DNA of 64,000 nucleotides from Faecousia sp. (GCA_045121575.1 JBGVGH010000047.1:940-64939); one strand, 5' to 3'. Counted from the first letter of the stretch, positions 8,197-51,994 are shown. Translations and numbers: made by a program. The notes: generated by a model not told the origin, from the sequence alone.

Positions 8197-9003
8197 TCAC
8201 AGCCCGAAGCGGGCCAGCACAATCACCGCCGCCAGCAGCAGCACGCCCACGCCGTAAGCGCCAAAGTCCCGGCGCTGATAGCGCAGCAGCTTCATCTTGG
8301 TGCGTCCCTCGCCGCCCTGGTAGCAGCGGCACTCCATGGCCGTGGCCAGCTCGTCGGCACGGCGGAAGGCGCTGATAAACAGGGGCACCAGAATGGGCAC
8401 CAGCGCCTTCACCCGCTGCATCAAAGAGCCGGTTTCAAAATCGGCGCCGCGGGCCTTCTGAGCGGACATGATTTTGTCGGTTTCCTCAATCAGGGTGGGA
8501 ATAAACCGCAGGGCGATGCACATCATCATGGCAAGCTCATGCACCGGCAGCTTGATTTTCTTCAGCGGTCCCAGCAGGGATTCCAGTCCGTCGGTCAGAG
8601 CAATGGGCGATGTGGTGTAGGTCAGAAGGAAGGTGCCTGAAATCAGCATCAGAATCCGAATCATCATGAAAAACGCCCGCACCACGCCCTCCAGCGTGAT
8701 GGTGATGACCCAGAAGGAAACCAACACCGTTTCCCCATCGGTAAAGAAAATGTTCAGCACGCCGGTGAAAATCAGAATCATCACCAGAGGCTTCATCCCC
8801 CGGAAAATGCTTTTCACCGGGATTTTGGAAATGGCGATGCACCAAACCAGAAACAGCAGCATCACCCCATAGGAAACCCAGCTCACTGCCAGAAACAGCG
8901 CCACAATATAGACCACCAGCATCACCAGCTTGGTGCGGGGGTCCAGCTTGTGCACCACGGAATTGCCGGGGAAAAACTGACCGAGGGTAATATCTTTCAG
9001 CAT
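8197..9003 (-). CDS. ecfT: ECF transporter transmembrane (T) component
   Basis: LDPRTKL start and the ARG...A.RxR type coupling motifs (AQKARGADFE, ALRFIPTL). Located downstream of two EcfA genes. Confidence 0.9.
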   Translation of the reverse strand: MLKDITLGQFFPGNSVVHKLDPRTKLVMLVVYIVALFLAVSWVSYGVMLLFLVWCIAISKIPVKSIFRGMKPLVMILIFTGVLNIFFTDGETVLVSFWVITITLEGVVRAFFMMIRILMLISGTFLLTYTTSPIALTDGLESLLGPLKKIKLPVHELAMMMCIALRFIPTLIEETDKIMSAQKARGADFETGSLMQRVKALVPILVPLFISAFRRADELATAMECRCYQGGEGRTKMKLLRYQRRDFGAYGVGVLLLAAVIVLARFGL

Positions 9004-9861
9004 TTATTTCCCCTCCTTCAGCTTTTTCAGGGCATCCACGGCCTGCTCCATGGTGTATACCGGCTCCACCGGCAGTCCCATTTCTTTCAGGCGCATGAAC
9101 ACTTTGGTAATCTGGGGAATGCCCAGTCCCATTTCCTCCAGCTCCCAGGCGTGGCTGAAAACCTCGCCGGGGGTGCCGTCCATGGCAATGTGCGCCCCAT
9201 TGAGCACCAGCAGTCTGTCCGTCAGCCGAGCCACATCGTTCATGGAATGGCTGACCATCATGATGGTGGCGTTCTTGGCACGGCGGTAGGCTTCAATATT
9301 GCCGAGAATTTCCTCCCGGCCCGCCGGGTCCAGTCCGGCGGTGGGCTCGTCCAGAATCAGCACCTCCGGCTCCATGGCAATCACGCCCGCAATCGCCACC
9401 CGGCGTTTCTGACCGCCGGACAGGTCAAAGGGCGAAACCTCCAGCTGCTGCTCCGTCAGGCCGACAAAGGCCGCAGCCTCCCGCACCCGGCGGTCCACTT
9501 CCTCCGCAGGCAGCCCCATATTCTTGGGGCCGAAGGAAATATCCTTGTACACCGTTTCCTCAAAAAGCTGATACTCCGGGTACTGAAACACCAGTCCCAC
9601 CCGGAACCGTGCTTCCCGGGTCAGCTTCTTGTCCGACCAGATGTCCTTGCCGTCCAGCAGCACCGTGCCGGAGGTTGGCTTGAGCAGGCCGTTCAGGTGC
9701 TGCATCAGCGTGGATTTTCCGGAACCGGTATGGCCGATGATGCCGATAAATTCTCCCCGGTTCACGGAAAAGCTGACATTATCCAGGGCGATATGCTCAA
9801 AGGGCGTCCCGGCGCTGTAAGTATGGGTCAGGTTCTGGACCTGTAAAATAGGCTCCACCAA
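9004..9861 (-). CDS. ecfA2: ECF transporter ATPase EcfA2
   Basis: Walker A GHTGSGKST, signature LSGGQKRR, Walker B ILDEPT. The stop abuts the ecfT ATG. The start is non-ATG (TTG or GTG) after GGAGGA. Confidence 0.9.
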   Translation of the reverse strand: MVEPILQVQNLTHTYSAGTPFEHIALDNVSFSVNRGEFIGIIGHTGSGKSTLMQHLNGLLKPTSGTVLLDGKDIWSDKKLTREARFRVGLVFQYPEYQLFEETVYKDISFGPKNMGLPAEEVDRRVREAAAFVGLTEQQLEVSPFDLSGGQKRRVAIAGVIAMEPEVLILDEPTAGLDPAGREEILGNIEAYRRAKNATIMMVSHSMNDVARLTDRLLVLNGAHIAMDGTPGEVFSHAWELEEMGLGIPQITKVFMRLKEMGLPVEPVYTMEQAVDALKKLKEGK

Positions 9862-9879
9862 AAAATTCCTCCCCGCGCG

Positions 9880-10728
9880 TCAGGCCTTCAGCGCATCGCA
9901 AAGTGCCTGCGCGCATTTATCTGTCTCCAGAGCATCCAGCGGAAGCCGGAAGCCCTCTTTGTTCAGTGCATAGCAAAGCTCCACCGTATCCGGTGCCGCC
10001 AGCCCGATGCTGTGCAGCAGTTCCACCTGGGAAAATACCTGCTCCGGGGTTCCGTCCGCCGCCACTTCTCCCTTGTGCAGAACGATGACCCGCTCTGCCT
10101 GGGCCGCTTCGTCCATGTGGTGGGTAATGAGCACCACGGTGATGCCCTTTTCCCGGTTCAGCCGGGTCACGGTTTCCATCACTTCCCGGCGGCCCCGGGG
10201 GTCCAGCATGGCTGTCGGCTCGTCCAGCACAATGCACTTGGGCTCCATGGCGATAATGCCCGCAATGGCCACCCGCTGCTTCTGACCGCCGGAGAGCAGA
10301 TGGGGGGCGTGCTCCCGGTATTCATACATCCCCACCTGCTTCAGGGCATTTTCCACCCGCCGGGCAATTTCCGGACTGGCCACGCCCAGATTCTCCGGGC
10401 CGAAGGCCACATCCTCCTCCACCACATTGGCGACGATTTGGTTGTCCGGGTTCTGGAAAACCATACCCACATTCCGGCGCACCCGCATCAGCAGCTCCTC
10501 GTTGGAGGTGTCCATGCCGGAGACATAGACCTTACCGCCGCAGGGCAGCAAAATGGAATTGAAATGCTTGGCAAGGGTGGACTTCCCACAGCCGTTGCTG
10601 CCGAGAATGGCCACAAATATACCTTCCTCAATGGTGAGGTTCAAATCCGTGAACACCGTCACACCGGGGGCATTGTCCACGCCCGGATAAACATAATTCA
10701 GGTGTTCCACACGAATGGCTTCGTTCAA
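9880..10728 (-). CDS. ecfA1: ECF transporter ATPase EcfA1
   Basis: Walker A GSNGCGKST, signature LSGGQKQR, Walker B VLDEPT. TTG start after GGGAGGG. Confidence 0.9.
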   Translation of the reverse strand: MNEAIRVEHLNYVYPGVDNAPGVTVFTDLNLTIEEGIFVAILGSNGCGKSTLAKHFNSILLPCGGKVYVSGMDTSNEELLMRVRRNVGMVFQNPDNQIVANVVEEDVAFGPENLGVASPEIARRVENALKQVGMYEYREHAPHLLSGGQKQRVAIAGIIAMEPKCIVLDEPTAMLDPRGRREVMETVTRLNREKGITVVLITHHMDEAAQAERVIVLHKGEVAADGTPEQVFSQVELLHSIGLAAPDTVELCYALNKEGFRLPLDALETDKCAQALCDALKA

Positions 10729-10743
10729 AAGTATTCCCTCCCG

Positions 10744-11601
10744 TCAGGGTGTCCAGCGGCCGGTTGCGCCGCAGGGCAGAATCAGGCCCGAAGATTTCAC
10801 CGGCAGGCCAACCTCGCCCACGGCGGTGTGTCCGCCGGGGAAAGCGGTGTCTGCCGCATAGCCCACGGCAGAGGGCGCAAGGCCTGTGGTGTAAGAATTG
10901 ATGATGACAAAAAGCGGATTATCCGTCAGCAGCTTGGCGGTTTCCAGCAGGAAGGGATAGAAACTGGTTTCCATCTTCCAGATTTCGCCGCTGGGACCGC
11001 GCCCATAGCTGGGCGGGTCCATGATGATGCCGTCATAGCGGCGTCCCCGGCGGATTTCCCTCTGGATGAACTTGGCGCAGTCATCCACAATCCAGTGGAT
11101 GGGCCGGTCTGCCAGGCCAGAAGCCTGGGCATTTTCCTTAGCCCAGGCCACCATGCCCTTGGAGGCATCCACATGGAACACCTCCGCCCCACCGGCAGCC
11201 GCCGCCAGAGTGGCGCCGCCGGAATAGGCAAACAGGTTCAGCACCCGGACAGGGCGACCCGCGCCGGCGCACTTCTCCCGGATGAAATCCCAGTTGGCCG
11301 CCTGCTCCGGGAACACGCCGGTGTGCTTGAAATTCATGGGCTTGACATTGAAAGTCAAAAAGTCCTTATAGCGCACCTGCCAGCGCTCCGGCAGATGATG
11401 CTCCGTCCAATGACCGCCGCCGGTGTTGGAGCGGACATAGCGGGCATCGTACTTTTTCCAGTTGGGGTCGGCATGGGGCGTGCTCCAGATGACCTGAGGG
11501 TCGGGGCGCACCAGGATATACTTTCCCCAGCGCTCCAGACGCTCGCCGTCGGAGGTGTCCAGCACCTCATATTCCTTCCATCCGTCAGAAATCCAAATCA
11601 T
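10744..11601 (-). CDS. Class I SAM-dependent methyltransferase (RlmI/RlmK-like rRNA methyltransferase fold)
   Basis: LNLFAYSGGATLAAAAGGA (SAM motif I) and IIMDPPSYGRG (DPP motif). ATG follows AAGGAG. Confidence 0.7.
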   Translation of the reverse strand: MIWISDGWKEYEVLDTSDGERLERWGKYILVRPDPQVIWSTPHADPNWKKYDARYVRSNTGGGHWTEHHLPERWQVRYKDFLTFNVKPMNFKHTGVFPEQAANWDFIREKCAGAGRPVRVLNLFAYSGGATLAAAAGGAEVFHVDASKGMVAWAKENAQASGLADRPIHWIVDDCAKFIQREIRRGRRYDGIIMDPPSYGRGPSGEIWKMETSFYPFLLETAKLLTDNPLFVIINSYTTGLAPSAVGYAADTAFPGGHTAVGEVGLPVKSSGLILPCGATGRWTP

Positions 11602-15170: not shown

Positions 15171-15192
15171 TCTTTCTTCCTGCTTGGTGCGT

Positions 15193-15220
15193 AATGTGTC
15201 CTTTTGGACCCACATTTTTG
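15193..15220 (+). terminator. Imperfect hairpin plus T-run after the DUF1292 gene
   Basis: aatgtgtcc tttt ggacccacatt followed by tttt. Confidence 0.45.
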
Positions 15221-15370
15221 AATCGGGAAGTTAGCTTCCTGCCCGGTTTGCAGACCTCCCGCCCCCGCTTTGACGAGGGGTGGATGTTGGGAGCAGTGAA
15301 GGACAGGAGCGGCAACCCACCTGCCATCACGTGCAGGTCATAATTGGATGCATACGGCCGAAGCGGGTGC

Positions 15371-15399
15371 ATGGGGAGCGCAAGCTCCCCATGTTTTTT
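15371..15399 (+). terminator. Intrinsic terminator ending a ~170-nt structured non-coding segment
   Basis: atggggagc-gcaa-gctccccat (GNRA loop) followed by gtttttt. Confidence 0.7.
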
Positions 15400-24119: not shown

Positions 24120-24148
24120 TTGACAAATATGCGCACCTGTGATAGAAT
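24120..24148 (+). promoter_or_regulatory. rplJL promoter
   Basis: TTGACA, 17-nt spacer, TAGAAT with an extended TG. Confidence 0.7.
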
Positions 24149-24149
24149 G

Positions 24150-24278
24150 CATCTGTTGCCAAAGACAGCAGGTTTCGGAAGATGTAATTCCTGCCGAGGT
24201 GCGCCTACAATTTGATTGTTTGCGTGTCTTTCTGTCTTTCTGGCAGAAGGACATTTTTATTTTTCGGAGGTGAAAATT
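24150..24278 (+). promoter_or_regulatory. Candidate ribosomal protein L10 leader with an attenuator hairpin
   Basis: ~130-nt untranslated leader between the promoter and rplJ. Hairpin tgtctttctg...cagaaggaca is followed by ttttatttttc just before the RBS. L10(L12)4 autoregulatory leaders are known at this position in Firmicutes. Confidence 0.5.
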
Positions 24279-40440: not shown

Positions 40441-40469
40441 AGGCACCTGCTTTCCGCAGGTGCCTTTTT
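40441..40469. terminator. Terminator shared by convergent thrE-like and cobB genes
   Basis: aggcacctgc tttcc gcaggtgcct followed by tttt. Confidence 0.7.
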
Positions 40470-41175
40470 ACAGCTGTGAAAAAATTTCGCCCAGGGGCTG
40501 GTGGAAAACCAAATCCGCCCGGCGGTCATAGGGGGTTTCGTCCCGGTTAATGAGCACCAGGCGGTTTCCCTGATAGTAATCAATCAGCCCCGCCGCGGGA
40601 TACACCGTCAGGCTGGTGCCTGCCACCAGCAGCAAATCCGCCGACGCAATGGCACGGATGGCCCCCTCCAGAGTTTCCGGGTTCAGCCCCTCCTCGTACA
40701 GCACCACATCGGGCTTGACGATGCCGCCGCAGGCGCACCGGGGAATGCCCCGGCTCTCTTTCACAAATTCCGCAGAGAAAAATTTGCCGCAGCGGACGCA
40801 GTAGTTGCGCAGCACCGAACCATGCAGCTCATACACCCTTTTCGACCCGGCCTTTTGGTGCAGGCCGTCAATGTTCTGGGTCACAACGGCAGAGAGCTTC
40901 CCCTCCTGCTCCCATTGGGCCAGCTTTTTGTGGGTGATGTTGGGTTCAAAGCCCAGAGGCAGCATTTTCTCCCGGTAAAAATCGAAGAAATACGCCGGGT
41001 TCCGCTCATAAAAGCTGTGGCTGATGATAACCTCCGGCGGGTAGTCGAATTTCTGGCTGTACAGCCCGTCCACACTGCGGAAATCCGGGATTCCCGATTC
41101 CGTGGACACCCCGGCTCCCCCAAAGAATACCATGCGGCGGCTTTCCTCAATCCACTGTTTCGACTTGTGTATCAT
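40468..41175 (-). CDS. cobB: NAD-dependent protein deacylase (Sir2 family)
   Basis: FFGGAGVSTESGIPDFRS, TQNIDGLH and the Zn ribbon CVRCG...CACGG. The ATG (41173-41175) straddles the left inverted repeat of the inserted element. Confidence 0.85.
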   Translation of the reverse strand: MIHKSKQWIEESRRMVFFGGAGVSTESGIPDFRSVDGLYSQKFDYPPEVIISHSFYERNPAYFFDFYREKMLPLGFEPNITHKKLAQWEQEGKLSAVVTQNIDGLHQKAGSKRVYELHGSVLRNYCVRCGKFFSAEFVKESRGIPRCACGGIVKPDVVLYEEGLNPETLEGAIRAIASADLLLVAGTSLTVYPAAGLIDYYQGNRLVLINRDETPYDRRADLVFHQPLGEIFSQL

Positions 41176-41455
41176 TGTCCAAACTAATTTCCATATCTTC
41201 CTCAATAATCGGAAGCTTGAATTTAATGGATTTTAACCACTGTCCGTTTGCCCTTCGTTCCTCGTAGACCTGAATTTCTGAAATTAACGATTCCATAATC
41301 TGACGTTTTTCCGCCTCGTCCATGACTGAATACAACTTGTCAAAGTAAATCAATACCTTGTAGATATTATCTCCGGTCAGTTTCTCCGCTTCGATTGCGG
41401 TTTTCTTCGCTCTCGCTGCGATAAGCTGGCTTTCGAATTCCTCAATCTTAACCAA
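41147..41455 (-). pseudogene. C-terminal remnant (~100 aa) of a large serine recombinase
   Basis: ...IYKVLIYFDKLYSVMDEAEKRQIMESLISEIQVYEERRANGQWLKSIKFKLPII matches the conserved tail of large serine recombinases. The catalytic N-terminal domain is absent, and the reading frame runs across the element end into host DNA. Confidence 0.7.
41174..41187. repeat. Left terminal inverted repeat (ATTGTCCAAACTAA)
   Basis: Exact reverse complement of 51230-51243. Confidence 0.9.
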
Positions 41456-41738
41456 CCGAAATAATTACATCCAGATTATAATAATCTACATCATAGACTT
41501 TTCCATCAGAGGCAGTGTAGGCAAATTTTGCCCACACTGATTCTTTTTGCAATTCGCCTTCTTTAAATATATTTCTTACGTGTTTTCCGATAACACTTCT
41601 GTCTCGCTGAAACAACTCTGCCATCTGGTCAATGGATAACCATACCGTATCCTCATCAAAGGTCGTTTCAATTTTTGCAAGACCGTCCTCTGTTGTATAA
41701 ATGATAATATTGGATTTCATATCCTCTTTAAATTCCAT
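41448..41738 (-). pseudogene. N-terminal remnant of a RhuM-family protein
   Basis: SNIIIYTTEDGLAKIETTFDEDTVWLSIDQMAELFQRDRSVIGKHVRNIF...YYNLDVIISVG then a stop. Full-length RhuM proteins continue with YRVKS... Confidence 0.7.
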
Positions 41739-42281
41739 TGCTAACCCTCTTTCCAATTTGTGCAACACCCCGTTGCACTATTTCTATGTAGCTCATTTTG
41801 AAACCCTGTTCCAAAATGAGTTTGGACAGATTTTACACGTTAATTATATCATGCAACATCTTTTGATTCAATAGTCGAAAGTGATTCCTCCGTAAAATTC
41901 TCAGTGTCTTTATCGGGAAGATTTTCCACATCAATCACAGATGCATATTTCTCGATCAAATCTGCCATCAAATTTGCAAATCCGCTCCACACGTCCTTTT
42001 CCAACTGTCCTATAAACATCAACCTCCTTGTGGGTGTGCTCAGCACCGCTCCCTTGTCTGCACACAAAAAGCCCTGCAAGGGAAATGACAACAAAGTTCG
42101 ACAACAGAACTCAAAAAACTGCCCATTTCCAATACAGAGCCTTACTACTACATTTCTATTCTTTTTTCATTTATTTGTTGTTTTGGTTGTCAGAGTGGTA
42201 AAACTCCTTGAAAACAAAGGACTTTTTAACTGCTTTTCCATGCAACCAACCGACAACACAGCCGACAATCTGGCCGACACT

Positions 42282-43679
42282 TTAGAAGGGAAGTTCCATC
42301 TGTCTGGCTTCTTCCTCTGACAATTCCACAAATCCATCCGTAGATTTTTCTTCCGTTGCATCGGTGCTGTTGTCACGTTCCCAGCCACGCTGCCTGCCAT
42401 AACTGCCAAAATATCTCGGATTGGAAAACTGCTTCCAACCTTTCACGCTATTATTCATAATCTCATTGATTTCCCTAATTTCCCATTGCTTCGGTTCATC
42501 AAAAGGATGGTTCAATGCTTCTTTATAAAGCTGCTTGGAACACACCTGTTTTCCAGTAAAATTCTCCAAATAAGCCTGTATCAGCCCTGCCTTGGTATCT
42601 TCCGGCATAAATTCCTTCTGCAGTTCCTTCAGATATTGCTCCACTTCTTTAGACAATGTCGGACGAACCTTTCCGCTTCTGTAAATCACCATCGCTTCTG
42701 CCCATAACTGATCAATATACTTACGGGATTCTGTCACATTCTCTAAAATATGAACCTCTGCTTTATCCGGATAAACCATAACAGGGAGAAAGCGTCGGTT
42801 TCCGCTTCGGTCAAGTGGCAGAAAATCCAACGTATTGGATGTACCACCAAACACACATTGACGCAGCCTGTCCGATGCCTGTTTCTCATACGGCACTTTA
42901 TAGGTTTCTTTCCTGCGACTTAAAAAAGATTTGATTTCCTCAATGCTTTTTGCATTTGCTGTGGCAATCATCTCCGACATCTCAATAATCCAATGCCCCT
43001 GTATCTTACGGAAAACATTCTCGTCATCCATCTTTTTTAGGTCATCTGAGAACCATTCATCCTTAACAGCGAGAAATTGAAAAAAAGTTGATTTTCCTGC
43101 ACCTTGACCGCCAGTCAGACAAAGCATGGTATCAAATTTACATCCCGGCTTAAAGGCTCTGCTGATTGCTCCCAACAAAAACAGTCGCATAGCTTCATAA
43201 GTGTATTCATTGATATCCGAACCCAAGAAATGGTGTAATACATATCGGATACGTTCTGTTCCGTCCCATTCCAGTCGGTTCAGATAATCTCTAACAGGAT
43301 GATATTGATTTTTGTCTGCAACGATAGAAATTGCTTTTTCAATTTTCTTTTCCACTGTCAGGCTGTACTTTTCTTCCATATAGAGAAAAAGATAATTGAT
43401 ATCCGTTTCATTCAACGCTCTGGAAGTCTTTTTCCACCAAAGTGGTTTTACAATATCGACTCTCTCCGTCATAATATTATAGCGAATCGCACCCGACAGA
43501 ATTGGATCAGACTGCAATACGGTCAGACAATTCTTGATACTGTTTTTGATGCTGCCATTCTCGTTCAGTATCAGGCTCCCTCTGACTTCTTCCACACTGC
43601 GACAGGTCTGCATTTCTCCAATCGTCTGCATCACTGCTTCCTGCGTCTCTGATGTTAAATTCTGAAATTCGTTGTTCAA
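42282..43679 (-). CDS. VirE (virulence-associated E) family P-loop primase/helicase-like protein
   Basis: DTMLCLTGGQGAGKSTFF Walker A, HWIIEMSEM Walker B-like, RRKETYKVPYEK...GGTSN...GNRRFLPV. Confidence 0.8.
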   Translation of the reverse strand: MNNEFQNLTSETQEAVMQTIGEMQTCRSVEEVRGSLILNENGSIKNSIKNCLTVLQSDPILSGAIRYNIMTERVDIVKPLWWKKTSRALNETDINYLFLYMEEKYSLTVEKKIEKAISIVADKNQYHPVRDYLNRLEWDGTERIRYVLHHFLGSDINEYTYEAMRLFLLGAISRAFKPGCKFDTMLCLTGGQGAGKSTFFQFLAVKDEWFSDDLKKMDDENVFRKIQGHWIIEMSEMIATANAKSIEEIKSFLSRRKETYKVPYEKQASDRLRQCVFGGTSNTLDFLPLDRSGNRRFLPVMVYPDKAEVHILENVTESRKYIDQLWAEAMVIYRSGKVRPTLSKEVEQYLKELQKEFMPEDTKAGLIQAYLENFTGKQVCSKQLYKEALNHPFDEPKQWEIREINEIMNNSVKGWKQFSNPRYFGSYGRQRGWERDNSTDATEEKSTDGFVELSEEEARQMELPF

Positions 43680-43933
43680 TTTTCATATTGAGCCGTATAA
43701 TACATAAGCTCCACTTGTTCAAAAGAAAAATCTTTTTCTGTTTCTTTAGGACGGTCAATTCCCGTAGAAACGCCACGGTAACAATCCCAATACACATTCA
43801 TCTTCGCTCGTTCCGTATCAATATGTTCACTATTTTCCAAATCAAAACGCCTGTCATTATGCTTTGGATTATAAGTGCCATGCTTTCCGGAACGACCATT
43901 ATGTCTGGTCAACCTCATCGACTTTTCCTCCAT
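43676..43933 (-). CDS. Small protein coupled to the VirE gene; N-terminus resembles Mob/Pre-type relaxase starts (weak)
   Basis: ATGA overlap with the VirE start. The RHNGRSGKHGTYNPKHNDRRFDLENSEHID motif recalls the HN(D/Q)R region of Firmicutes Mob proteins, but this is recollection only. Confidence 0.4.
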   Translation of the reverse strand: MEEKSMRLTRHNGRSGKHGTYNPKHNDRRFDLENSEHIDTERAKMNVYWDCYRGVSTGIDRPKETEKDFSFEQVELMYYTAQYEN

Positions 43934-44598
43934 TTCTTAAAATTTCTGATTCATCTGGTCAAAGAAATCGAAGCAGCTTTGCTGCTGTCCTGCTTCATTT
44001 ATGCGCAGGTAATACCCAGTACTAAGTGGCGAAACGCCACTGACTGGGCAAGGCTGCCGCCCTTGACCCGCACAGGGATATTGCATTCCCTGTACCCATG
44101 CACAAAGGGTTGCACCCTCTGTACTCCTGCCGAATAAACTGTCTCGTACCGGTGGCATCCGGTTCTTACAGTTCATTCGTTTTTTCAGAACTCTCCACCG
44201 GAGACTTTTGAAAAAAGGCAATGACCATCTACTATGCCACGTAGATTTTCATTGCCTGTTTGAGTATGCCGCAACTGGCACACTCGATTTGTTTTGCAAA
44301 TGAGCAAAACAAAAAGCATCAACTTTTTACAGCTGATACTCTTTGCTTTAGTCATTATTTGCCGTTCTACCCTTGATGTTTCCTTGGAGGCATATCCCCT
44401 GTGCGGTGCTGTCCAGTCTCCTTTGCAGAAGCGCTCTTTTTCATGGCGGTGTATTTCATCTTGGACGGTCATTCAATTTTTGCTCATCTCTGAACTGGCT
44501 ACATCATACAGCAAAAAATCGAAATTCCCGGATACTTTCCACTATCGAAAATTCACGCAAAAAAGCCCCCAATTTTCCACATAGAAATCCGGGGAACG

Positions 44599-44627
44599 TT
44601 GTCACTTTATTTTGTTTATGATAGAAT
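44599..44627 (+). promoter_or_regulatory. Promoter of the XRE regulator gene
   Basis: TTGTCA, 17-nt spacer, TAGAAT with an extended TG. Confidence 0.6.
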
Positions 44628-44648
44628 ATCTGCGTTAGGAGGATGCTA

Positions 44649-45461
44649 ATGAAAACTCAATTATCAATACAGGAAAAATTAGAAGATTTAAGAAAAGAAC
44701 GTAAGCTTACCCAAGATGTTGTGGCATCTGCTGTCGGGATAACCATATCTACGTTAAGTAAGTATGAAAATAAAGAAAACAAAGAATACAACATTGCCAC
44801 TCTCAACAGTCTGGCTAAATATTATGATGTTCCTTTGGAGTGGCTTGTCGGCAATACCGAAATACGAGAAGTGACCAACACACCTATCAATGAACTGATG
44901 TTAGATGATGAAACAATCGAGCTGTTAAAAAGTGGTCGTTTTAACAACCGACTTCTCTGTGAAATTATAAAACATCCAGACTTCATAAAGCTGATGACAG
45001 ATACTGAAATCTATGTTGACGGTATCGCCACCATGCAGATCAAAAATATGAATGACTGGCTGGATGCTGTCCGTTTCCAAATCATACAGCAGAAAAATCC
45101 GGATGCTAATGATTTATATTTGAAAGTACTGGAAAGCTCACATATTCAGGAAGAAGAATATTTCTTCCATACCATTCACAGTGATTGGGACAATATTGTT
45201 CGCACAATTCGTGAAAACCATCAATATGCTGTAGAGTCTGCACCGATTGAAAGACCTATGTCCAACGATAAAAAGGTTCAGCGATTCTTACAGACTCTCA
45301 AATTCAAGAGTAACCCAATCGAAGAATTCTGGCATTTCTTCTGCGACGAAATGCAGATTCCATTCGACCACCTATCTGTAGAAGAACATAAAATCATGAA
45401 GGACGTTTTCAAGCGTTCCAAACTTTTGAAAGCCTTGCCAAATCGCAGAAAAGGGAAGTAA
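44649..45461 (+). CDS. XRE-family HTH regulator with a ~190-aa C-terminal domain of unknown function
   Basis: LRKERKLTQDVVASAVGITISTLSKYEN HTH. AGGAGG lies 6 nt before ATG 44649. Confidence 0.8.
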   Translation: MKTQLSIQEKLEDLRKERKLTQDVVASAVGITISTLSKYENKENKEYNIATLNSLAKYYDVPLEWLVGNTEIREVTNTPINELMLDDETIELLKSGRFNNRLLCEIIKHPDFIKLMTDTEIYVDGIATMQIKNMNDWLDAVRFQIIQQKNPDANDLYLKVLESSHIQEEEYFFHTIHSDWDNIVRTIRENHQYAVESAPIERPMSNDKKVQRFLQTLKFKSNPIEEFWHFFCDEMQIPFDHLSVEEHKIMKDVFKRSKLLKALPNRRKGK

Positions 45462-45523
45462 AAAAGACTCACATAAAAATTCTTTTTTTGACTGACATTA
45501 ACTCCATTTTCGAAAAACGAAGC

Positions 45524-45559
45524 AAAAGGCACTAACTTTTTTGCGGTTAGTGCCTTTTG
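45524..45559. terminator. Bidirectional terminator between the XRE gene and the cargo operon
   Basis: aaaaggcactaac ttttttgcg gttagtgcctttt. Confidence 0.75.
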
Positions 45560-45569
45560 GCTTGGTCAT

Positions 45570-45926
45570 TTATTTTGTTGTTAATAAGATTCTCGCATCG
45601 AATTTGAAATTTCTTCCATCGTCTGTATAAACATCAACTTTATCACCCTCATGAGCTTTTATCGTTGCAAGCAACTGAGAAGAAATTTTTTTCTTGCCAG
45701 CTAAACTTAGAACATCCTCATAAACATCAAAAGTTATACATTCATTAATATCATAAACAAAAATCTTTACATTCAATACGGTGCCAAGATATTCTCCACC
45801 AGTAACATATGTTCCATTCCCACCGGGGTAATTGTCATATTTATACTGGTCGTAACCCTGTACTCCTTGTTTAATGTAAGTTATTCGACTTTGATGTTTT
45901 TCTATTTCAACAATTCGTCCTTTCAT
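45570..45926 (-). CDS. 118-aa soluble protein, unknown function (last gene of the cargo operon)
   Basis: GGAGGTGG RBS 4 nt before ATG 45924-45926. No TM segment and no motif I recognise. Confidence 0.6.
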   Translation of the reverse strand: MKGRIVEIEKHQSRITYIKQGVQGYDQYKYDNYPGGNGTYVTGGEYLGTVLNVKIFVYDINECITFDVYEDVLSLAGKKKISSQLLATIKAHEGDKVDVYTDDGRNFKFDARILLTTK

Positions 45927-45988
45927 TTTTCCACCTCCAGTCAATATTCTTCATTCATTAGAAAAAAAACGATTGCGGAATATGATAA

Positions 45989-47506
45989 TCAGAATCCAAA
46001 TAAACTCGCAAAACCACGAGCGAGGGATTTCACTCCGCCAACAACCGCACTGCCTACTGACTTTACAACTTCTACAGCCTTGTCACGGACTTTCTGAACA
46101 CCTTTCACAACTGTTTCAGCCACTTTAGAGCCAGCCATATAGCCTATTGTTCCGCCAACAAAACCTCCAACTGCTGCTCCAACGGGTCCCAAAACAGAAC
46201 CGATAGTTGCACCGATAACTGCTCCTTTAGTGGACGTAGCAATGCCTGCAACACAAGCGGCAGTTGTCTGTTCCATTTTGTCCAGACCCTCTTTAGCTGT
46301 CAATTCTCCTGTTGCGACTTTTCCTAAAACCTTGACATTCTCTACGGCTACAAAAGCAATGTTTGCGAATGTACTTCCCTTTGTTCCTTTTGGAATAACT
46401 TTCAATATGCCCTTTTCTGATGCAGCTTTCAATGCTCCGGCAGTCGCTGTTTTCACGCCGAAATCCGCACCCGAAACGATAGCAGTTTCAACAACTTCTT
46501 CGCTATCAATCGGCTCTCCATTCCAAACTTTAGTTGCGATTGCCATACCTGCACCGACAGCAGCACCTTGCAGACAAGCGTAACCCGTTTGTTTTCCGAT
46601 GCCGATTGCAATATCTTTAGCAATATAGTCATTCCAATCAGCATCCATGAAGTTGCCCTTTTGAGCTTGCTCTTGCAATTCCTTTGCTTGCTCTTTTGTT
46701 AAAGGCTTACTCGATATATCTCCATCTTGAATGGTGGAGGTAACGGTCTTATAGGGAAAAGCTTCTTGAACTGCCGCAACTTGCTCCTCTGGAACAACAA
46801 GAATTTGGTTGTTGTAGTTTCCAGAGTTTATCATACGAATGGTGTCCTCAGCGGTAGCACCATATTTCATCTGATACTGATGGATTCTCTTTCCTGTGGC
46901 ATCCTTGATAACTACATCAAAACCGTTTTTTGTGTAAGTTTCGCCGGGCTTTAGTGGCTGAACTTCTGCTCTCAAGCCACTACCTTTTGCCGCAGCATTC
47001 ATATTAAAAGAATTGACATGATGCTGTTCTGCAATAAAGCCATCCAAGTTCGGATTCATACTTGGTGTGATGTATCCACTTCCCTTTGTCGTAATGGTTT
47101 CGTGCATAGCGGCATTTGCACTCTTTACCGCATCATCCAAGCTCTGCAAATATTTTGCACTTTCTTGTGCTGACATTTGCGAAGTAGATTTCAAAACTGT
47201 CGAAGCAAACCAACTATCTTTGCTTCTTCCGGCTGCAATTGCTTTCTCCTGAGATACTTTCATATCTTCTGTTACTTTAAGGGAGTCGATAATCTCGGAA
47301 CTCATTTCCTTAATTTCCTCAGAAGATTTTTCTGGAAGTTGTTTTTGGAGTTCTTGGGGCAACCATTCTTCCACGGACATCTTATCCTTGGAAGAAGCAT
47401 AGCTCTCTAAAAACTCTCGCTGTATTTTAGAAATACCTTTTGCTTCTTCCTCTGACAGAACTTTTTCCGAGAAATCAAATTCATATATTTCATCTTTCTT
47501 ATCCAT
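45989..47506 (-). CDS. 505-aa protein: acidic helical N-terminus, central globular domain, Gly/Ala-rich glycine-zipper C-terminus
   Basis: Starts 8 nt after the AAA+ stop. The C-terminus is GAVIGATIGSVLGPVGAAVGGFVGGTIGYMAG, made of GxxxG repeats. Confidence 0.7.
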   Translation of the reverse strand: MDKKDEIYEFDFSEKVLSEEEAKGISKIQREFLESYASSKDKMSVEEWLPQELQKQLPEKSSEEIKEMSSEIIDSLKVTEDMKVSQEKAIAAGRSKDSWFASTVLKSTSQMSAQESAKYLQSLDDAVKSANAAMHETITTKGSGYITPSMNPNLDGFIAEQHHVNSFNMNAAAKGSGLRAEVQPLKPGETYTKNGFDVVIKDATGKRIHQYQMKYGATAEDTIRMINSGNYNNQILVVPEEQVAAVQEAFPYKTVTSTIQDGDISSKPLTKEQAKELQEQAQKGNFMDADWNDYIAKDIAIGIGKQTGYACLQGAAVGAGMAIATKVWNGEPIDSEEVVETAIVSGADFGVKTATAGALKAASEKGILKVIPKGTKGSTFANIAFVAVENVKVLGKVATGELTAKEGLDKMEQTTAACVAGIATSTKGAVIGATIGSVLGPVGAAVGGFVGGTIGYMAGSKVAETVVKGVQKVRDKAVEVVKSVGSAVVGGVKSLARGFASLFGF

Positions 47507-47514
47507 TGTTCACC

Positions 47515-49182
47515 TTATCCTCTCGAAGAATATCCTCTCAATATTGCTGAAAGCGAAGAACCAAGAGCCGAGATAGCTTGTGCTTGGGATGCTGTGGATG
47601 TAGCACTTGTTGCAGTACCTGTTGATTTGCTTTCAACATGGGAAGGTTCTACCACTTTTTTAAGTGCAGGTTTTGATGCTACCTTGTTCTCTGGATTACT
47701 TGCAGGCTTCAAATCCATATCCTTAACGGCTTCCTTGATTTCTTTGATGCGTTTTTCCAATGTACTGGAAATAGATTTAATATTCTTTTGTGCTGATTTC
47801 AAATCATCGGTCGTTAATTGTTCTCTGCCCTCAATAAAGCAACTCTCAATCGCATCTTTAACAATGGCTTCCAAGTCAGCACCATTGTAGCCACTGGTCA
47901 ACTTAACAAGAGAGATTATATCTAACTCTTTGTTCCATTTATGACGCTTTTTCAAATGAATCTCTATGATTTTTCTTCTTTCCTCATCGTTAGGGAAGTC
48001 AACATAGAACAACTCATCAAATCTACCTTTTCTCAAAAACTCTGCCGGAATTTTTGAAATGTCGTTTGCAGTAGCAACAATGAAAACTGTATTTTCCTTT
48101 TCCTGCATCCAAGTCAAAAACTGTCCAAACAAGCGTGTAGTAACATCACTGCCACCACCGGAACTTCCGACACCGGAAAAAGCTTTTTCGATTTCATCAA
48201 TCCAAAGCACACATGGGCTGATTGCTTCTGAAAGCTTCAACGCCTTTCTCATATTTTCTTCGGATTCGCCAATATACTTTCCGAGCAAGCGTCCAACATC
48301 AAGCCTTACCAGCGGAATTTCAAACAGTTTAGCCGTAGCCTTTGCTGCCAAACTCTTTCCGCATCCTGGCATACCGACTATCATGATTCCTTTTGGAATA
48401 TCAACTCCAAATTTCATGGCTTTATCTAATTGATTGAAAATCCTCTCTTTTTTATAAAGCCACTCTTTCAGATTTTCCAAACCACCAATATCTTCAATGC
48501 TCTCGTTTACGGGAATCATTTCAAGCAGTCCGGCTTTTTTTATCAACTGTTCCTTCTGGCTCAATATCAAACGCTTATCATCAAAATCTAAGCAACCACC
48601 GTCTTGATATGCCAAATTTAAGATTTGCTTTACTTGAAATTCATTTAGTCCCTTGAAAGAAAGAGCAATCTCGCTCATGACATCATCAGTCACATCAATT
48701 TCTAAGTCCTTCGTGAAGCCTATCATGATGTTCTTGATTTCCGACACCGATGGCAACGGCATATCAAACACTGTGATCAAATCTTCAAGCTCATCTGGAA
48801 TACAAAGTTTGCTTGAAACAATAAAAACAGATGCGTTGTAGCTCTCATTATATAGATTTCGCTCTGCTATGTATTTCAACAAAGACACGATTTCTGGTTT
48901 GTCCAACTGACTATGAACATCTTTTAAGACAATGAACATAGAATGTTCATATCCATCATCTTTAACAAGGTTAAGGAAGTTATACAAATCGCACTCTTTC
49001 ATCGTGGATTTTGTCTTAAAGTCCACAATACCTAAACCATTGTTATATTCTACAACTTTCCTATTATCTGTTATATCCGTGATAATTTCATCAATTACTT
49101 TGAAATCAAAGTGATTGATGTAAATGATTGGGTATAAGGCATCAATATATGAAGCCATTAAATCCCTTGCGCTATTCTTCAT
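47515..49182 (-). CDS. Classical AAA+ ATPase, Ycf46-like (degenerate N-terminal domain plus one active AAA module), Ser/Thr-rich tail
   Basis: Walker A GMPGCGKS, Walker B VLWIDEIEK, SRH/Arg finger ATAN...LRKGRFDE. The N-terminus ALYPIIYINHFDF resembles the Ycf46 start (recollection). Start reset to ATG 49180-49182 after GGAGG. Confidence 0.85.
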   Translation of the reverse strand: MKNSARDLMASYIDALYPIIYINHFDFKVIDEIITDITDNRKVVEYNNGLGIVDFKTKSTMKECDLYNFLNLVKDDGYEHSMFIVLKDVHSQLDKPEIVSLLKYIAERNLYNESYNASVFIVSSKLCIPDELEDLITVFDMPLPSVSEIKNIMIGFTKDLEIDVTDDVMSEIALSFKGLNEFQVKQILNLAYQDGGCLDFDDKRLILSQKEQLIKKAGLLEMIPVNESIEDIGGLENLKEWLYKKERIFNQLDKAMKFGVDIPKGIMIVGMPGCGKSLAAKATAKLFEIPLVRLDVGRLLGKYIGESEENMRKALKLSEAISPCVLWIDEIEKAFSGVGSSGGGSDVTTRLFGQFLTWMQEKENTVFIVATANDISKIPAEFLRKGRFDELFYVDFPNDEERRKIIEIHLKKRHKWNKELDIISLVKLTSGYNGADLEAIVKDAIESCFIEGREQLTTDDLKSAQKNIKSISSTLEKRIKEIKEAVKDMDLKPASNPENKVASKPALKKVVEPSHVESKSTGTATSATSTASQAQAISALGSSLSAILRGYSSRG

Positions 49183-49184
49183 GC

Positions 49185-50063
49185 TTATACCTCCATATAT
49201 AACAATTCGAAAGAAGCATTGTTGCACTGGTATTCCAATCCATCGAACTTAACTAACTTGTCGTTTACATCAGTATTTCCAAGCTTCTCGTAGAAATTGC
49301 CTGCATTTTTGATAAATGTTCCAGAAGCAATGTTAATGACCATAAGTTTAACTTCAGGTCTTTCAATAGGATCCCACATAGCTTGAGTGTTTCTCTTGAC
49401 GATTTTCAAATCATCGCCAAGAATTTCTTTTGCTTTGCTTGTTGTTAGCAGGGAAGATTTAACACTTGTATAAATCTTTGCGTTTGCTTCTTCGCCAATC
49501 CAAAACTTTCGAAAAGCATCTCTTGTTAAAATCGCAAAAAGCGCTTTTGGTGCAGATACAAGTAGGCGAAAATACAGTTCGTAATGGTTTAATTCAAATA
49601 AACCAAAATACTCTCTTTCCATCTGAATCGCATCAGCTTTCAGAACCGCCATATTGTCTTTGTTTTCTTCCATGTGCATAACAAGAGCTGTGTAACCGGA
49701 ATGGTAATCGTCAATTACCTGTTTCTTACCGAAAGCATTTTCTTTATAAATAGCGTTTAATTCCTTTTCTTCATCCAAATAGGAAAGGATACCGATTGCT
49801 TTTTCAATCTCGCTATCGTCTAAATCTACAACCTCAAAAATCTTAACAAGCTCTGTAATAATTGCTTTTTTATCTGCATTTTTGTCTATTGCAGAAACCT
49901 TCTCATATTCCTTCTCGTAACCACGAACATCTAACCAGCGAAGCAGGAGACCATTATCAAAATATTTGAGCATATCTTCCATTGAAAAATGTTCCTGCAT
50001 ACCCTCAATATTTCTTACTGGATAATTGTCCAGAATCAAATTAAACTTAATTGTTTTAGCCAT
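49185..50063 (-). CDS. 292-aa protein, unknown function (cargo operon gene A)
   Basis: AGGAGG lies 8 nt before ATG 50061-50063. The stop is 2 nt before the AAA+ ATG. No motif I recognise. Confidence 0.65.
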   Translation of the reverse strand: MAKTIKFNLILDNYPVRNIEGMQEHFSMEDMLKYFDNGLLLRWLDVRGYEKEYEKVSAIDKNADKKAIITELVKIFEVVDLDDSEIEKAIGILSYLDEEKELNAIYKENAFGKKQVIDDYHSGYTALVMHMEENKDNMAVLKADAIQMEREYFGLFELNHYELYFRLLVSAPKALFAILTRDAFRKFWIGEEANAKIYTSVKSSLLTTSKAKEILGDDLKIVKRNTQAMWDPIERPEVKLMVINIASGTFIKNAGNFYEKLGNTDVNDKLVKFDGLEYQCNNASFELLYMEV

Positions 50064-50120
50064 TGCCAAATCCTCCTAAAATATTATTTACATTTTACCA
50101 TCCCATATAGACACCATCTG

Positions 50121-50336
50121 TCATTCCGATGATTTATCTGCTTTTCTCCAATTTTTATATTCGCCTGTTGTAATACGTCCATCAATAGGCTTGTTAACAT
50201 CCTTAGGTATTGCCCAAGATCTCCCGAATTGAACCGCACCAGGAATTTTTCCAGTAGCACAAAGTGTCCTAACCCAGCGTGGTGTCAATTCCCATTTCTC
50301 TGCCACTTCTTTTACAGTGTAAAAGTCTTTATTCAT
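50121..50336 (-). CDS. Excisionase/MerR-like small HTH DNA-binding protein
   Basis: YTVKEVAEKWELTPRWVRTLCATGKIPGAVQFGRSWAIP, the Xis-family HTH pattern. GAGGTGGTGG RBS. Confidence 0.7.
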   Translation of the reverse strand: MNKDFYTVKEVAEKWELTPRWVRTLCATGKIPGAVQFGRSWAIPKDVNKPIDGRITTGEYKNWRKADKSSE

Positions 50337-50397
50337 TATCCACCACCTCACTTCTGGATTTTATACCATTCTTTCTCATTGGAACAAATCATATATA

Positions 50398-50426
50398 TTA
50401 TATTCCCCAAAAGGAATAATGTCAAT
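50398..50426 (-). promoter_or_regulatory. Consensus promoter of the cargo operon
   Basis: Minus strand TTGACA (50421-50426), 17-nt spacer, TATAAT (50398-50403). Confidence 0.7.
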
Positions 50427-50500
50427 GTTACATCAAAAAGTTTGGACTTCATACAACAAAAACTGGACTCCACAAACATCTGTGAAATCCAGCTCTTTGA

Positions 50501-50869
50501 TTATACATATATCATTTCACGGAGCACAATTTCTTCTGCCCTGTTACGAATGAAATTCATACTCTGAATCCATTTCCACTGATCATTCTTCTTCAATTCC
50601 TCAGTTACAGATTCCGCTTTTTTCATCTGCTCGATGATAACCTCTAATCTGTTCTGCGCCTGCTCATTTATATCAGCAAGATAAGTCCAAAGCTGGCAGG
50701 TCAAAATCAAATCATCATACTGCATCGGTTTATGTTCCTTCAAGTAATCTCGGTGCATTCGTCCAAAGCGACCAATCATTCTGTGTTCCTCTGGAAGTTT
50801 TAAATCCGGAATATAGTAATCGCCTACTAAAACATAATCAATGCCGTTTTCTGTTATTCTTTCTTTCAT
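50501..50869 (-). CDS. tnpV: TnpV-family transposon protein
   Basis: GDYYIPDLKLPEE..IGRFGRMHRDYLKEHKP...YLADINEQAQNRLE...MNFIRNRAEEIVLREMIY matches the TnpV pattern of Tn4451-type elements. Confidence 0.8.
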   Translation of the reverse strand: MKERITENGIDYVLVGDYYIPDLKLPEEHRMIGRFGRMHRDYLKEHKPMQYDDLILTCQLWTYLADINEQAQNRLEVIIEQMKKAESVTEELKKNDQWKWIQSMNFIRNRAEEIVLREMIYV

Positions 50870-50941
50870 GCGTTTGTCTCCTTTTCTTCACTCATTTTTG
50901 TTAAAACTTGAAAGTTCAGAGACAAGTTGTATTCATTATGG

Positions 50942-51187
50942 TTAAATCATCCCAAAGTGCTTCAAAGCATCTACGATGGCAGCTTCTTTATCTGCAGGAC
51001 ACTTTGGCTGTCTGGAATCCTCGGATTTCGGCTTATTGTAATTCTCTCGCTCGATAATGCCATGTTTCTGCTTTACCTGTGCGATATACAGGCTACTTAC
51101 TTTCATGCCTGTATTTTCCATGACATAAGCCTTAATTTCCTCGTAAGTGGCTTTCTTTTCAGCATCGGTCAAATCCAGCTCGTCCAT
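50942..51187 (-). CDS. Element-encoded 81-aa ORF, now in frame with trmD
   Basis: MDELDLTDAEKKATYEEIKAYVMENTGMKVSSLYIAQVKQKHGIIERENYN... This sequence type is common next to TnpV in such elements (recollection). No SD sequence precedes its ATG here. Confidence 0.45.
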   Translation of the reverse strand: MDELDLTDAEKKATYEEIKAYVMENTGMKVSSLYIAQVKQKHGIIERENYNKPKSEDSRQPKCPADKEAAIVDALKHFGMI

Positions 51188-51994
51188 ATTCAATTCGACT
51201 TCGATATGATTAGTCGATTTTAGTTTGGACAATAAACACACCGTCTCAGCGTTTGCAGCATCCTCCGCCTCCATTTCACGCAGTAGCTTCTTGTCCTGCT
51301 TGGAGGACAAATCCAGCTTTTCATACATATCGGGGCGGCGGGCTCTGGTGCGACGCAGGGCCTGCTTCCGCCGCCACTGGTTCACCTTTTCATGGTTTCC
51401 AGACAGCAGAATCTGGGGCACTTCCCTGCCGTGCCAGACGGCGGGGCGGGTATACTGGGGGTATTCCAGCAGGCCGTTATAGTGGCTTTCATCCTCGAAG
51501 CACTCCGCATCCGCCAGTACCCCCGGCACCATGCGGCACACCGCGTCTGTGACCGCCATGGCGGCGATTTCGCCGCCGGTCAGCACAAAGTCCCCCAGGG
51601 AAATTTCTTCGTCCACACACTCGTCAATGAACCGCTGGTCGATGCCCTCGTAATGGCCGCAGACCAGCACCAGATTCTCCATCCGGCTCAGGCGGATGGC
51701 GTCGGCCTGCTTAAAAGTATGGCCGCAGGGGGAAAGATAGATGGTATGCACCGGGCCGCCCGCCTCGTCGCACACCGCCTCCCAGCAGCGGTACAGCGGG
51801 TCGGCGGTCATCACCGCGCCCCGTCCGCCGCCGTAGGGATAGTCATCGGTCTGGTTCTGCTTGTTGGCGGTGTAATCCCGAATCTGGTGGGTTTCGATGC
51901 GGATGAAGCCCCGCTCCTGGGCCCGGCCCAGAATGCTCTCGCTGAGCACATCCCCCAGAGTTTCGGGAAACAGGGTCAGAATGTCAATTCTCAT
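50942..51994 (-). CDS. trmD: tRNA (guanine37-N1)-methyltransferase TrmD, native stop lost, 96 element-derived codons appended
   Basis: MRIDILTLFPE..., GHYEGIDQR and LTGGE motifs. The native part ends at about 51244; the frame continues through the right inverted repeat to the TAA at 50942. Confidence 0.85.
   Translation of the reverse strand: MRIDILTLFPETLGDVLSESILGRAQERGFIRIETHQIRDYTANKQNQTDDYPYGGGRGAVMTADPLYRCWEAVCDEAGGPVHTIYLSPCGHTFKQADAIRLSRMENLVLVCGHYEGIDQRFIDECVDEEISLGDFVLTGGEIAAMAVTDAVCRMVPGVLADAECFEDESHYNGLLEYPQYTRPAVWHGREVPQILLSGNHEKVNQWRRKQALRRTRARRPDMYEKLDLSSKQDKKLLREMEAEDAANAETVCLLSKLKSTNHIEVELNMDELDLTDAEKKATYEEIKAYVMENTGMKVSSLYIAQVKQKHGIIERENYNKPKSEDSRQPKCPADKEAAIVDALKHFGMI
51230..51243. 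repeat. Right terminal inverted repeat (TTAGTTTGGACAAT)
   Basis: Exact reverse complement of 41174-41187. Confidence 0.9.

Follow-up and report, generated by a model that had tools for sequence, protein, structure and literature searches.

We analysed a 64,000-nt stretch of DNA from Faecousia sp. (GCA_045121575.1, JBGVGH010000047.1:940-64939), hereafter the window, comparing it with Pfam, NCBIfam and PADLOC models, and concentrated on a low-GC block that separates trmD from cobB. The block is bordered by rimM and trmD on the right and by cobB (SIR2) and thrE on the left; its genes lie on the minus strand with the exception of an XRE regulator, and no intact recombinase is among them. It occupies 41162-51245 (10,084 bp, or 10,086 bp when one copy of the GA dinucleotide at its borders is counted) and is absent from a close relative. 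The block is very probably an integrated island of a family that carries a single large serine recombinase (LSR) and usually targets the 3' end of rumA-type (TrmA-family, uracil-C5) methyltransferase genes, and the window copy is a defective derivative of an LSR element.

A first-pass annotation of the same DNA had set the ends of the element at perfect 14-bp inverted repeats. These repeats exist: the 14-mer ATTGTCCAAACTAA lies at 41174-41187 (plus strand), and its exact reverse complement at 51220-51233. The right-hand copy had been placed 10 bp too high, at 51230-51243 (which reads CAATAAACACACCG and not the repeat), so the span between the outer edges is 10,060 bp rather than the 10,070 bp given. 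The annotation was correct that the repeats coincide with the compositional transitions (GC of ~0.60 outside and ~0.38 inside at both copies), and the AT at the outer edge of each repeat, together with the minus-strand junction strings, agreed with the sequence. A perfect 14-nt inverted pair alone is unremarkable, as two further perfect pairs of 14-15 nt occur in the same AT-rich 11.5 kb, and with up to two mismatches permitted at least two matches were obtained in 7 of 100 shuffles. In all 76 of the 76 related loci compared, TTTGGACA is unchanged and stands exactly 22 nt from a GA that never varies, and TTGTCCAAACT was present again at the opposite end of two related elements (L072 and L085). 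We took the repeats as real because of their position and their conservation in relatives. A perfect 15-nt inverted repeat, TGAATACAACTTGTC, at 41327-41341 and 50921-50935 (~150-300 bp inside each island end), for which no conservation was found, is probably due to chance.

Empty site and crossover point

A look-up of the window's exact RimM led to an empty-site locus in GCA_045121325.1 (L006), which has an identical RimM and no island, and in which trmD (253 aa) shares 29 nt with the overlapping cobB (235 aa). L006 was 99.6-99.7% identical to the window flanks, with a 9-nt overlap (GAAACAGTG). Its empty site reads ...AACGCT-GA-AACAGTGGATTGA... (joint string GCTGAAACAGTGGATTGA; in longer form ...GCAAACGCT-GA-AACAGTGGATTGAGG...). 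The right junction of the window reads ...GCAAACGCT-GA-GACGGTGTGTTT followed by the repeat ATTGTCCAAACTAA, the left flank here ending in AACGCT, and the left junction reads TTAGTTTGGACAAT (the repeat) followed by GATACACAAGTC-GA-AACAGTGGATTGAGG, or, in short form, the inverted repeat, then GATACACAAGTC-GA-AACAGTGG. The empty site of L006 equals left flank, GA and right flank exactly. The relative also has trmD and cobB adjacent without the island, which confirms that this adjacency predates the element, as had been proposed.

L006 equals the window for 6.5 kb upstream through GA, after which mismatches appear at +1 and +4 (51245 and 51242); on the downstream side, the two are identical from 41161 for 580 bp with no mismatches, and the base 5' of GA (41162) differs from attB. 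The two junctions and the empty site share GA and nothing else, without other duplication, and the exchange is therefore assigned to GA: at attL, 51246-51247 (minus strand), where four different flanks join, and at attR, 41160-41161 (minus strand; TC on the plus strand). The element ends 12 bp outside the 14-bp repeats. Two other crossover points were rejected. For GTG, within the shared ETV codons, the single-nucleotide differences at +1 and +4 fall on the chromosomal side and the arms turn asymmetric; the second GA is excluded by the same two differences.

The 14-bp repeats are the outer parts of 26-bp attP arms. The P arm (TTAGTTTGGACAATGATACACAAGTC, 41162-41187, minus strand) has the left repeat as its outer 14 nt and encodes integrase residues ISLDNDTQV, and the P' arm (GACGGTGTGTTTATTGTCCAAACTAA, 51220-51245, minus strand) has the right repeat as its outer 14 nt. 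The rebuilt circular joint is attP = TTAGTTTGGACAATGATACACAAGTC-GA-GACGGTGTGTTTATTGTCCAAACTAA, 54 bp long, as for an attP of ~50 bp with imperfect dyad symmetry around the core; P' agrees with the reverse complement of P at 18 of 26 positions in register, namely the outer 14 nt, one more position and the inner GTC/GAC. If the solved serine-integrase/attP complex is a guide, the 14-bp repeats could be zinc-ribbon-domain motifs. A metagenome scan with the 37-nt P' end gave no matches.

Next to attR, a 102-aa open reading frame (ORF) at 41147-41455 (minus strand) is the 3' remnant of an LSR gene, with homology over 41153-41449 corresponding to residues ~458-564 of ~565. It exits through P and GA and ends ...SLDNDTQVE/TVD-stop on TrmD's own codons. 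Its homologues are LSR C-termini, conserved through ...SLDND.H.ETV and divergent thereafter; this conservation reaches seven codons past the left boundary set by the first-pass annotation and put into doubt the AT crossover proposed there. As that annotation had recognized, the recombinase is not intact and only a C-terminal remnant is left: the window copy (~99 C-terminal residues) gave no Pfam match, so that the three domains of an LSR were not found in it, and no other LSR was present in the 64-kb window. A 106-aa N-terminal fragment of a RhuM-family protein (41448-41768, minus strand; residues 13-103 of 339; also a match to PADLOC PDC-S05) is fused directly to the integrase remnant, and this joint therefore indicates an internal deletion of ~2 kb. 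Judged by full-length relatives, two internal deletions are apparent, one covering ~460 of ~565 integrase codons and most of RhuM, the other most of a ~434-aa gene. The island is accordingly predicted to be unable to excise by itself; with attL and attR intact, a related integrase could act in trans.

A genome scan returned 80 related loci, in Oscillospiraceae, Lachnospiraceae, Faecalibacterium, Butyricicoccus and others, most of them with an intact LSR of ~560-600 aa. The full-length recombinases of L013 and L023 carry Resolvase, Recombinase and Zn_ribbon_recom domains (the best NCBIfam model for L013 was CcrB, below its cut-off). The full-length gene stands at the element end and reads outward, with VapE and orf81, often RhuM too, upstream. 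Past the Glu codon, integrase tails are mostly 8-14 aa long and follow E[TCSA][VI].LL..[RK]. In L015, L072 and L085, where both ends are present, the same B-GA-P' and P-GA-B' pattern was observed; the ends of relatives, which had been expected at the repeats, lie 12 bp farther out at GA, as they do here. The idea that most relatives are short remnants was rejected. The top 120 matches of both protein searches were 100-180 aa long because they came mostly from fragmentary metagenome contigs, and ~90% of the genomic loci that no contig end interrupts carried full-length genes.

The window's exact TnpV, which occurs on many contigs, was used to find further copies. The identical P' end was joined to four different flanks, all of which diverge directly 5' of GAGACGG: trmD (AACGCT-GA), GGTCATGTT-GA in a PF05958 (tRNA_U5-meth_tr, RumA-like) gene (L087), GGTGCATGTG-GA and GGACATGTC-GA. 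Three of the four encode ...HVE/TV. The trmD junction was found in several samples (L088, L094 and L097), and the truncated integrase was seen only together with the trmD insertion. Exact look-ups of VapE and of the integrase remnant returned only the same strain (L097), with no sister carrying an intact integrase beside this VapE. A whole-island megablast found no phages and, among plasmids, only one 220-bp match at 85% identity (Subdoligranulum).

Family assignment and rival explanations

The vanG/ICE-r elements of Enterococcus, Streptococcus and Roseburia take as target the GA of the 11th-from-last rumA codon (GAG) and have 28-30-bp imperfect terminal repeats; at their right end a stop-less serine recombinase gene is fused to the last 11 codons of rumA, at their left end a start-less ORF of 101-115 codons is fused to the 5' part of rumA, and tandem arrays form (Srinivasan et al. 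2014, PMC4120198). The present elements share with them GA at both ends, imperfect repeats of ~26-30 bp, a stop-less integrase, a start-less ORF of ~100-115 codons and tandem arrays (8 of 76 loci here run from the integrase into this ORF, hereafter X). The island differs in its size (10 kb without conjugation genes, versus ~45 kb), in its location (trmD/cobB and not rumA) and in its truncated recombinase. All streptococcal integrative and conjugative elements (ICEs) in rumA have attR within the integrase gene, and in them target and integrase genes trade their 3' ends (Ambroset et al. 2016, PMC4701971); secondary sites are used, and CTn5 relocated between rumA and a gene for an adhesin (PMC4701971). 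The position of attR and the 3'-end swap are common to the island, to the streptococcal ICE_rumA and IME_rumA elements (IME, integrative and mobilizable element) and to Clostridioides difficile CTn5 (PMC4701971, PMC5704250), as are secondary sites inside other protein genes, and IME-size members exist (Ambroset et al. 2016; Guedon et al. 2017). Unlike these, the island resides in a gut Clostridia host of ~60% GC and carries different cargo and accessory genes (TnpV, VapE and an IetA-like ATPase). Myxophage Mx8 differs in being a phage, and its Int is a tyrosine recombinase. It is alike in that the integrase C-terminus is changed on integration, attP lying inside int, so that a different protein is specified before and after excision (via PMC4701971).

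At the window locus the integrase is completed by 3' codons of the target, an in-frame start-less ORF stands at the other end, and GA falls in a Glu codon, as in rumA-type insertions at the C-terminal ...HVE(T/C)V.LL... motif; the insertion itself lies at trmD/cobB rather than in rumA, and the sister L087 lies in a PF05958 gene. The window element belongs to the rumA-targeting serine-integrase group as a small, defective copy at a secondary site, and its design is already published. It extends a family known chiefly for vanG and other resistance genes to gut hosts of the Oscillospiraceae type and to a small island of the TnpV/VapE type, and leaves the current understanding of the family unchanged.

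The circular form would carry the 54-bp attP overlapping the last integrase codons. As in the established serine-integrase mechanism, integrase dimers would bind both 26-bp arms, cut both strands of attP and attB at GA with a 2-nt stagger, and religate after rotation; the orientation of insertion would be fixed because GA is asymmetric. Entry took place at the look-alike site GCT-GA-AACAGTG, which encodes TrmD A-E-T-V, similar to the H-V-E-T-V motif in RumA. The integrase gene and trmD thereby exchanged their 3' ends, as in rumA insertions; cobB, begun 29 nt inside trmD, had its first five codons cut off and came to be read from an ATG in the P arm. Two internal deletions then stripped most of the integrase and RhuM genes and most of the ~434-aa gene.

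Several points weigh against this assignment. The case is wholly comparative, with no recombination observed, and the empty site is known from one genome only (L006). The attB at trmD resembles the attP arms weakly (9/26 and 12/26). The likeness of X and the integrase to those of vanG/ICE-r is one of layout, and the choice of rumA as primary target is based on a single flank confirmed by Pfam, on motifs read in other flanks and tails, and on the literature. The contigs L087-L096 lack the other element end, which rules out a reconstruction of their attB sites.

The first-pass annotation had rightly described an integrative element inserted precisely by a large serine recombinase through a 2-bp core, and had cast it as Tn4451-like, with the 14-bp repeats as ends, AT as crossover and a circular joint TTAGTTTGGACA-AT-TGTCCAAACTAA (a 26-bp perfect palindrome). 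Excision would then restore a TrmD ending ETVCL-TGA that overlaps the cobB ATG. The perfect repeats do stand flush with a shared AT at the GC transitions, and the rebuilt joint yields plausible gene ends with an ATGA overlap; the arithmetic holds, as joining AT to AT gives ...TTTATGATAC.... The predicted empty site GTGTGTTTATGATACACA does not exist, however: the ~99.7% identical relative L006 reads GCTGAAACAGTGGATTGA and lacks both the 12 nt GACGGTGTGTTT and the 12 nt GATACACAAGTC that would have to be chromosomal. These same bases move with the element into three other flanks and are conserved beside the integrase gene in 76 relatives. Native TrmD in L006 ends ETVD-stop, the native cobB ATG sits 29 nt within trmD rather than in an ATGA coupling, and the circular joint that follows from the actual ends forms an imperfect palindrome of 54 bp, its 14-mers separated by 26 bp. 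With a palindromic AT core, insertion would have no polarity and orientation could not be fixed, yet X is in frame with the upstream gene in all contexts observed; the actual core, GA, is asymmetric. An AT crossover is thus highly improbable, and the ATGA reconstruction is the product of the chance ATG in the P arm together with a TGTGT...ACACA dyad formed by inner arm parts. The sequence would look alike if a DDE-type transposon had terminal inverted repeats of 12-14 bp and duplicated a 2-bp AT target, but the island has no transposase gene, the empty site has no AT at the junction, element sequence extends 12 bp beyond each repeat, and relatives have a serine recombinase at the element end; we regard its probability as close to negligible. 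The most conspicuous repeats of a serine-integrase element can be outer attP binding motifs and not its ends, and a neatly reconstructed gene junction can be a coincidence, on which the empty site decides.

True membership in Tn4451/Tn4453, with a TnpX orthologue accompanied by TnpV, TnpY, TnpZ and TnpW, is quite unlikely. TnpV is present, a small helix-turn-helix (HTH) protein and a possible relaxase fragment accompany it, and GA is also the core of TnpX. In Tn4451 the joint of the circle precedes tnpX, and tnpX is read toward the element interior, whereas here attP overlaps the 3' end of an outward-reading recombinase gene, unlike what a Tn4451-like element, as first proposed, would show. 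Tn4451/Tn4453 and Tn5397 share with the island an LSR, exchange at a 2-bp core (TnpX: PMC5704250), GA as that core (TndX requires a central GA: PMC4430133), preferred and secondary targets, and TnpV; they differ in attP placement relative to the recombinase gene and in their gene sets. No TnpY-like second resolvase was found in the island, and the full-length relative of its 85-aa fragment gave no Mob_Pre match. The start-less X, not reported for Tn4451/Tn5397, and the C-terminus exchange mark the rumA-targeting group (PMC4120198, PMC4701971). It is likewise improbable that the island was gained only by homologous recombination or gene conversion between flanking chromosomal homologies, for instance on transformation or conjugation from a carrier strain, without a site-specific event in this lineage. 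In favour of this, the integrase is defective, so that a copy already bearing the deletion could not have moved in by itself, several samples share the trmD junction (L088, L094, L097), and such transfer was raised for the within-species spread of vanG by Srinivasan et al. (PMC4120198). It would account for spread from strain to strain and not for the origin of the junction, whose exact GA structure is also found at three unrelated flanks; the deletion may simply have followed insertion, and the 6.5 kb and 0.58 kb adjoining the junctions showed no long tracts of foreign single-nucleotide differences.

ORF X, trmD and cobB

At the left end of the element, X (50942-51245, minus strand; ~100 codons) has no start codon at its 5' end and is fused in frame to trmD. 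The native part of trmD is at 51246-51994 (minus strand), and its codon 253 (Asp) and stop now lie at 41147-41152, behind the integrase remnant. The core GA is inside the GAA Glu codon of AETVD, and TrmD changes from ...AETVD-stop to ...AETVCLLSK... with 96 residues of X, growing from 253 to 350 aa; trmD-X is a single ORF at 50942-51994.

More than 5,200 clusters of X homologues were found. Among the 120 listed, 13 carry PF05958 and 7 are named 23S rRNA uracil-C5 methyltransferase, and these are therefore RumA-X fusions. Conservation in the X alignment starts exactly at ETVCLLSKL, upstream sequences being variable, and X is in frame with the upstream gene in every context seen. Over the ~17 codons preceding the first Met of X the protein sequence is conserved, H, I and E being the same throughout, and distant relatives keep an alternating hydrophobic pattern there with different codons. 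This pattern of conservation suggests that X is produced as an extension of either the host protein or the integrase. An AlphaFold2 model of X (pLDDT, the predicted local distance difference test score, 74) has three helices, with the first 24 residues disordered; Foldseek gave no match in PDB (best E = 2.5), and neither Pfam nor NCBIfam models matched.

In the rebuilt circular joint, the integrase frame would continue through X without a stop. Integrase-X read-through ORFs of 656-672 aa were observed in 8 of 76 loci, which have an intact P-GA-P' joint into X and lie within large chromosomal contigs (in L030 with an XRE gene to either side); probably each represents two elements arrayed in tandem. 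The read-through loci are L011, L023, L024, L030, L033, L035, L040 and L062, at about 8800-10800 in most.

Whether the open frame across attP serves as a switch sensing the integration state is speculative, and we consider this doubtful. Two observations would fit it: the frame that stays open into X in 8 of 76 loci, and the protein-level conservation of the ~17 codons ahead of the first Met of X. If it did, the circle would make a ~660-aa integrase-X fusion and the chromosomal integrase would end on a few host codons, while X would become a C-terminal extension of a host protein under the host promoter. The integrase forms could then differ in activity or direction, or X could be a directionality factor; a functional difference between two integrase forms, as for Mx8, was suggested in PMC4701971. 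Here, the design attaches X to the essential enzyme TrmD.

The original cobB ATG lies at 51259-51261 (minus strand), as cobB of L006 starts at L006 position 11212 (MLQTLKQWIEE), equal to window 51261, and is now 10 kb from the remainder of the gene. The present cobB (40468-41175, minus strand) is native from codon 6 to the end, being split between codons 5 and 6, with a substitute ATG and four codons supplied by the P arm (AAT GAT...). The length of CobB is kept, MLQTL becoming MIHKS; the in-frame ATG in the P arm is due to chance. From the sequence, CobB may start at Met15 (MVFFGGAG...) in both the empty and the occupied state, in which case the N-terminal swap would have no effect. A strong Shine-Dalgarno-like sequence, GAGGAAAG, is found at 41115-41140 (minus strand), 7 nt upstream of Met15. 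At this locus, a rumA-targeting element occupies a look-alike site that ends an essential gene; TrmD has gained a tail of 97 residues, the start of cobB has been rewritten, and the strain is evidently alive.

Other genes of the island and minor observations

Beyond RhuM, an 81-aa ORF (41849-42094, minus strand) is conserved and lies upstream of the integrase, or of RhuM and the integrase, in relatives (tblastn synteny). A VapE-like (virulence-associated protein E) P-loop protein (42282-43679, minus strand; PF05272, E = 5e-71; 449 aa in L097) probably has a replication function. The 85-aa ORF at 43676-43933 (minus strand) is the N-terminal fragment of the ~434-aa protein (residues 24-99; 70% identical to ORF L062:4959-6260). 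A Mob/Pre assignment was not confirmed, the full-length relative L062:4959-6260 having no Pfam match; the ~434-aa protein is possibly a relaxase, with an HxDR-like motif seen by eye only. Between this fragment and the XRE gene, 43998-44217 is 85% identical to an unannotated part of the Subdoligranulum variabile plasmid OY725877.1.

The XRE/Cro-type HTH regulator (44643-45461, plus strand; HTH_19, HTH_3) is followed by a cargo operon (45570-50069, minus strand) for a 294-aa protein, an AAA+ ATPase (IetA-like), a 505-aa protein with a C-terminal glycine zipper and a 124-aa protein. This block was present on all 10 contigs L087-L096, which cover the four insertion contexts. The ATPase matched IetA models at E = 5e-26, but with 81 bits against the 510 bits of the NCBIfam IteA cut-off, and no gene adjoining it matched a protease or IetS model, as an IetAS pair would require. 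The operon could be an undescribed anti-phage or abortive-infection module. Toward the left end of the element lie an HTH_17 (excisionase/MerR-like) small DNA-binding protein (50121-50351, minus strand; PF12728, E = 3e-8) and TnpV (50501-50869, minus strand; PF14198, E = 2e-44), the latter as previously annotated. Rfam and tRNA scans gave no matches within the island.

Outside these genomes, the integrase of the Anaerococcus prevotii plasmid pAPRE01 (L098; NC_013164.1, 57106-58782) is 78.5% identical to that of L013 and ends a MobQ/replisome-organizer module of a conjugative plasmid; the family therefore also occurs on plasmids and outside Clostridia proper (Tissierellia). A lone, frameshifted 135-aa integrase 3' remnant was observed at L001 9900-10410 (also in L003-L005; 17 contigs were read), between ABC-transporter and Band_7 genes, and looks like a fossil element end whose remainder was lost. 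The L002 contig (ERZ1311629) is self-mirrored around ~11.76 kb, its genes recurring in the opposite order; a hairpin artefact of assembly is almost certainly the cause. Elsewhere in the window, and unrelated to the island, a 6S RNA gene (15174-15373) and a ribosomal protein L10 leader (24141-24268) reached Rfam gathering scores.

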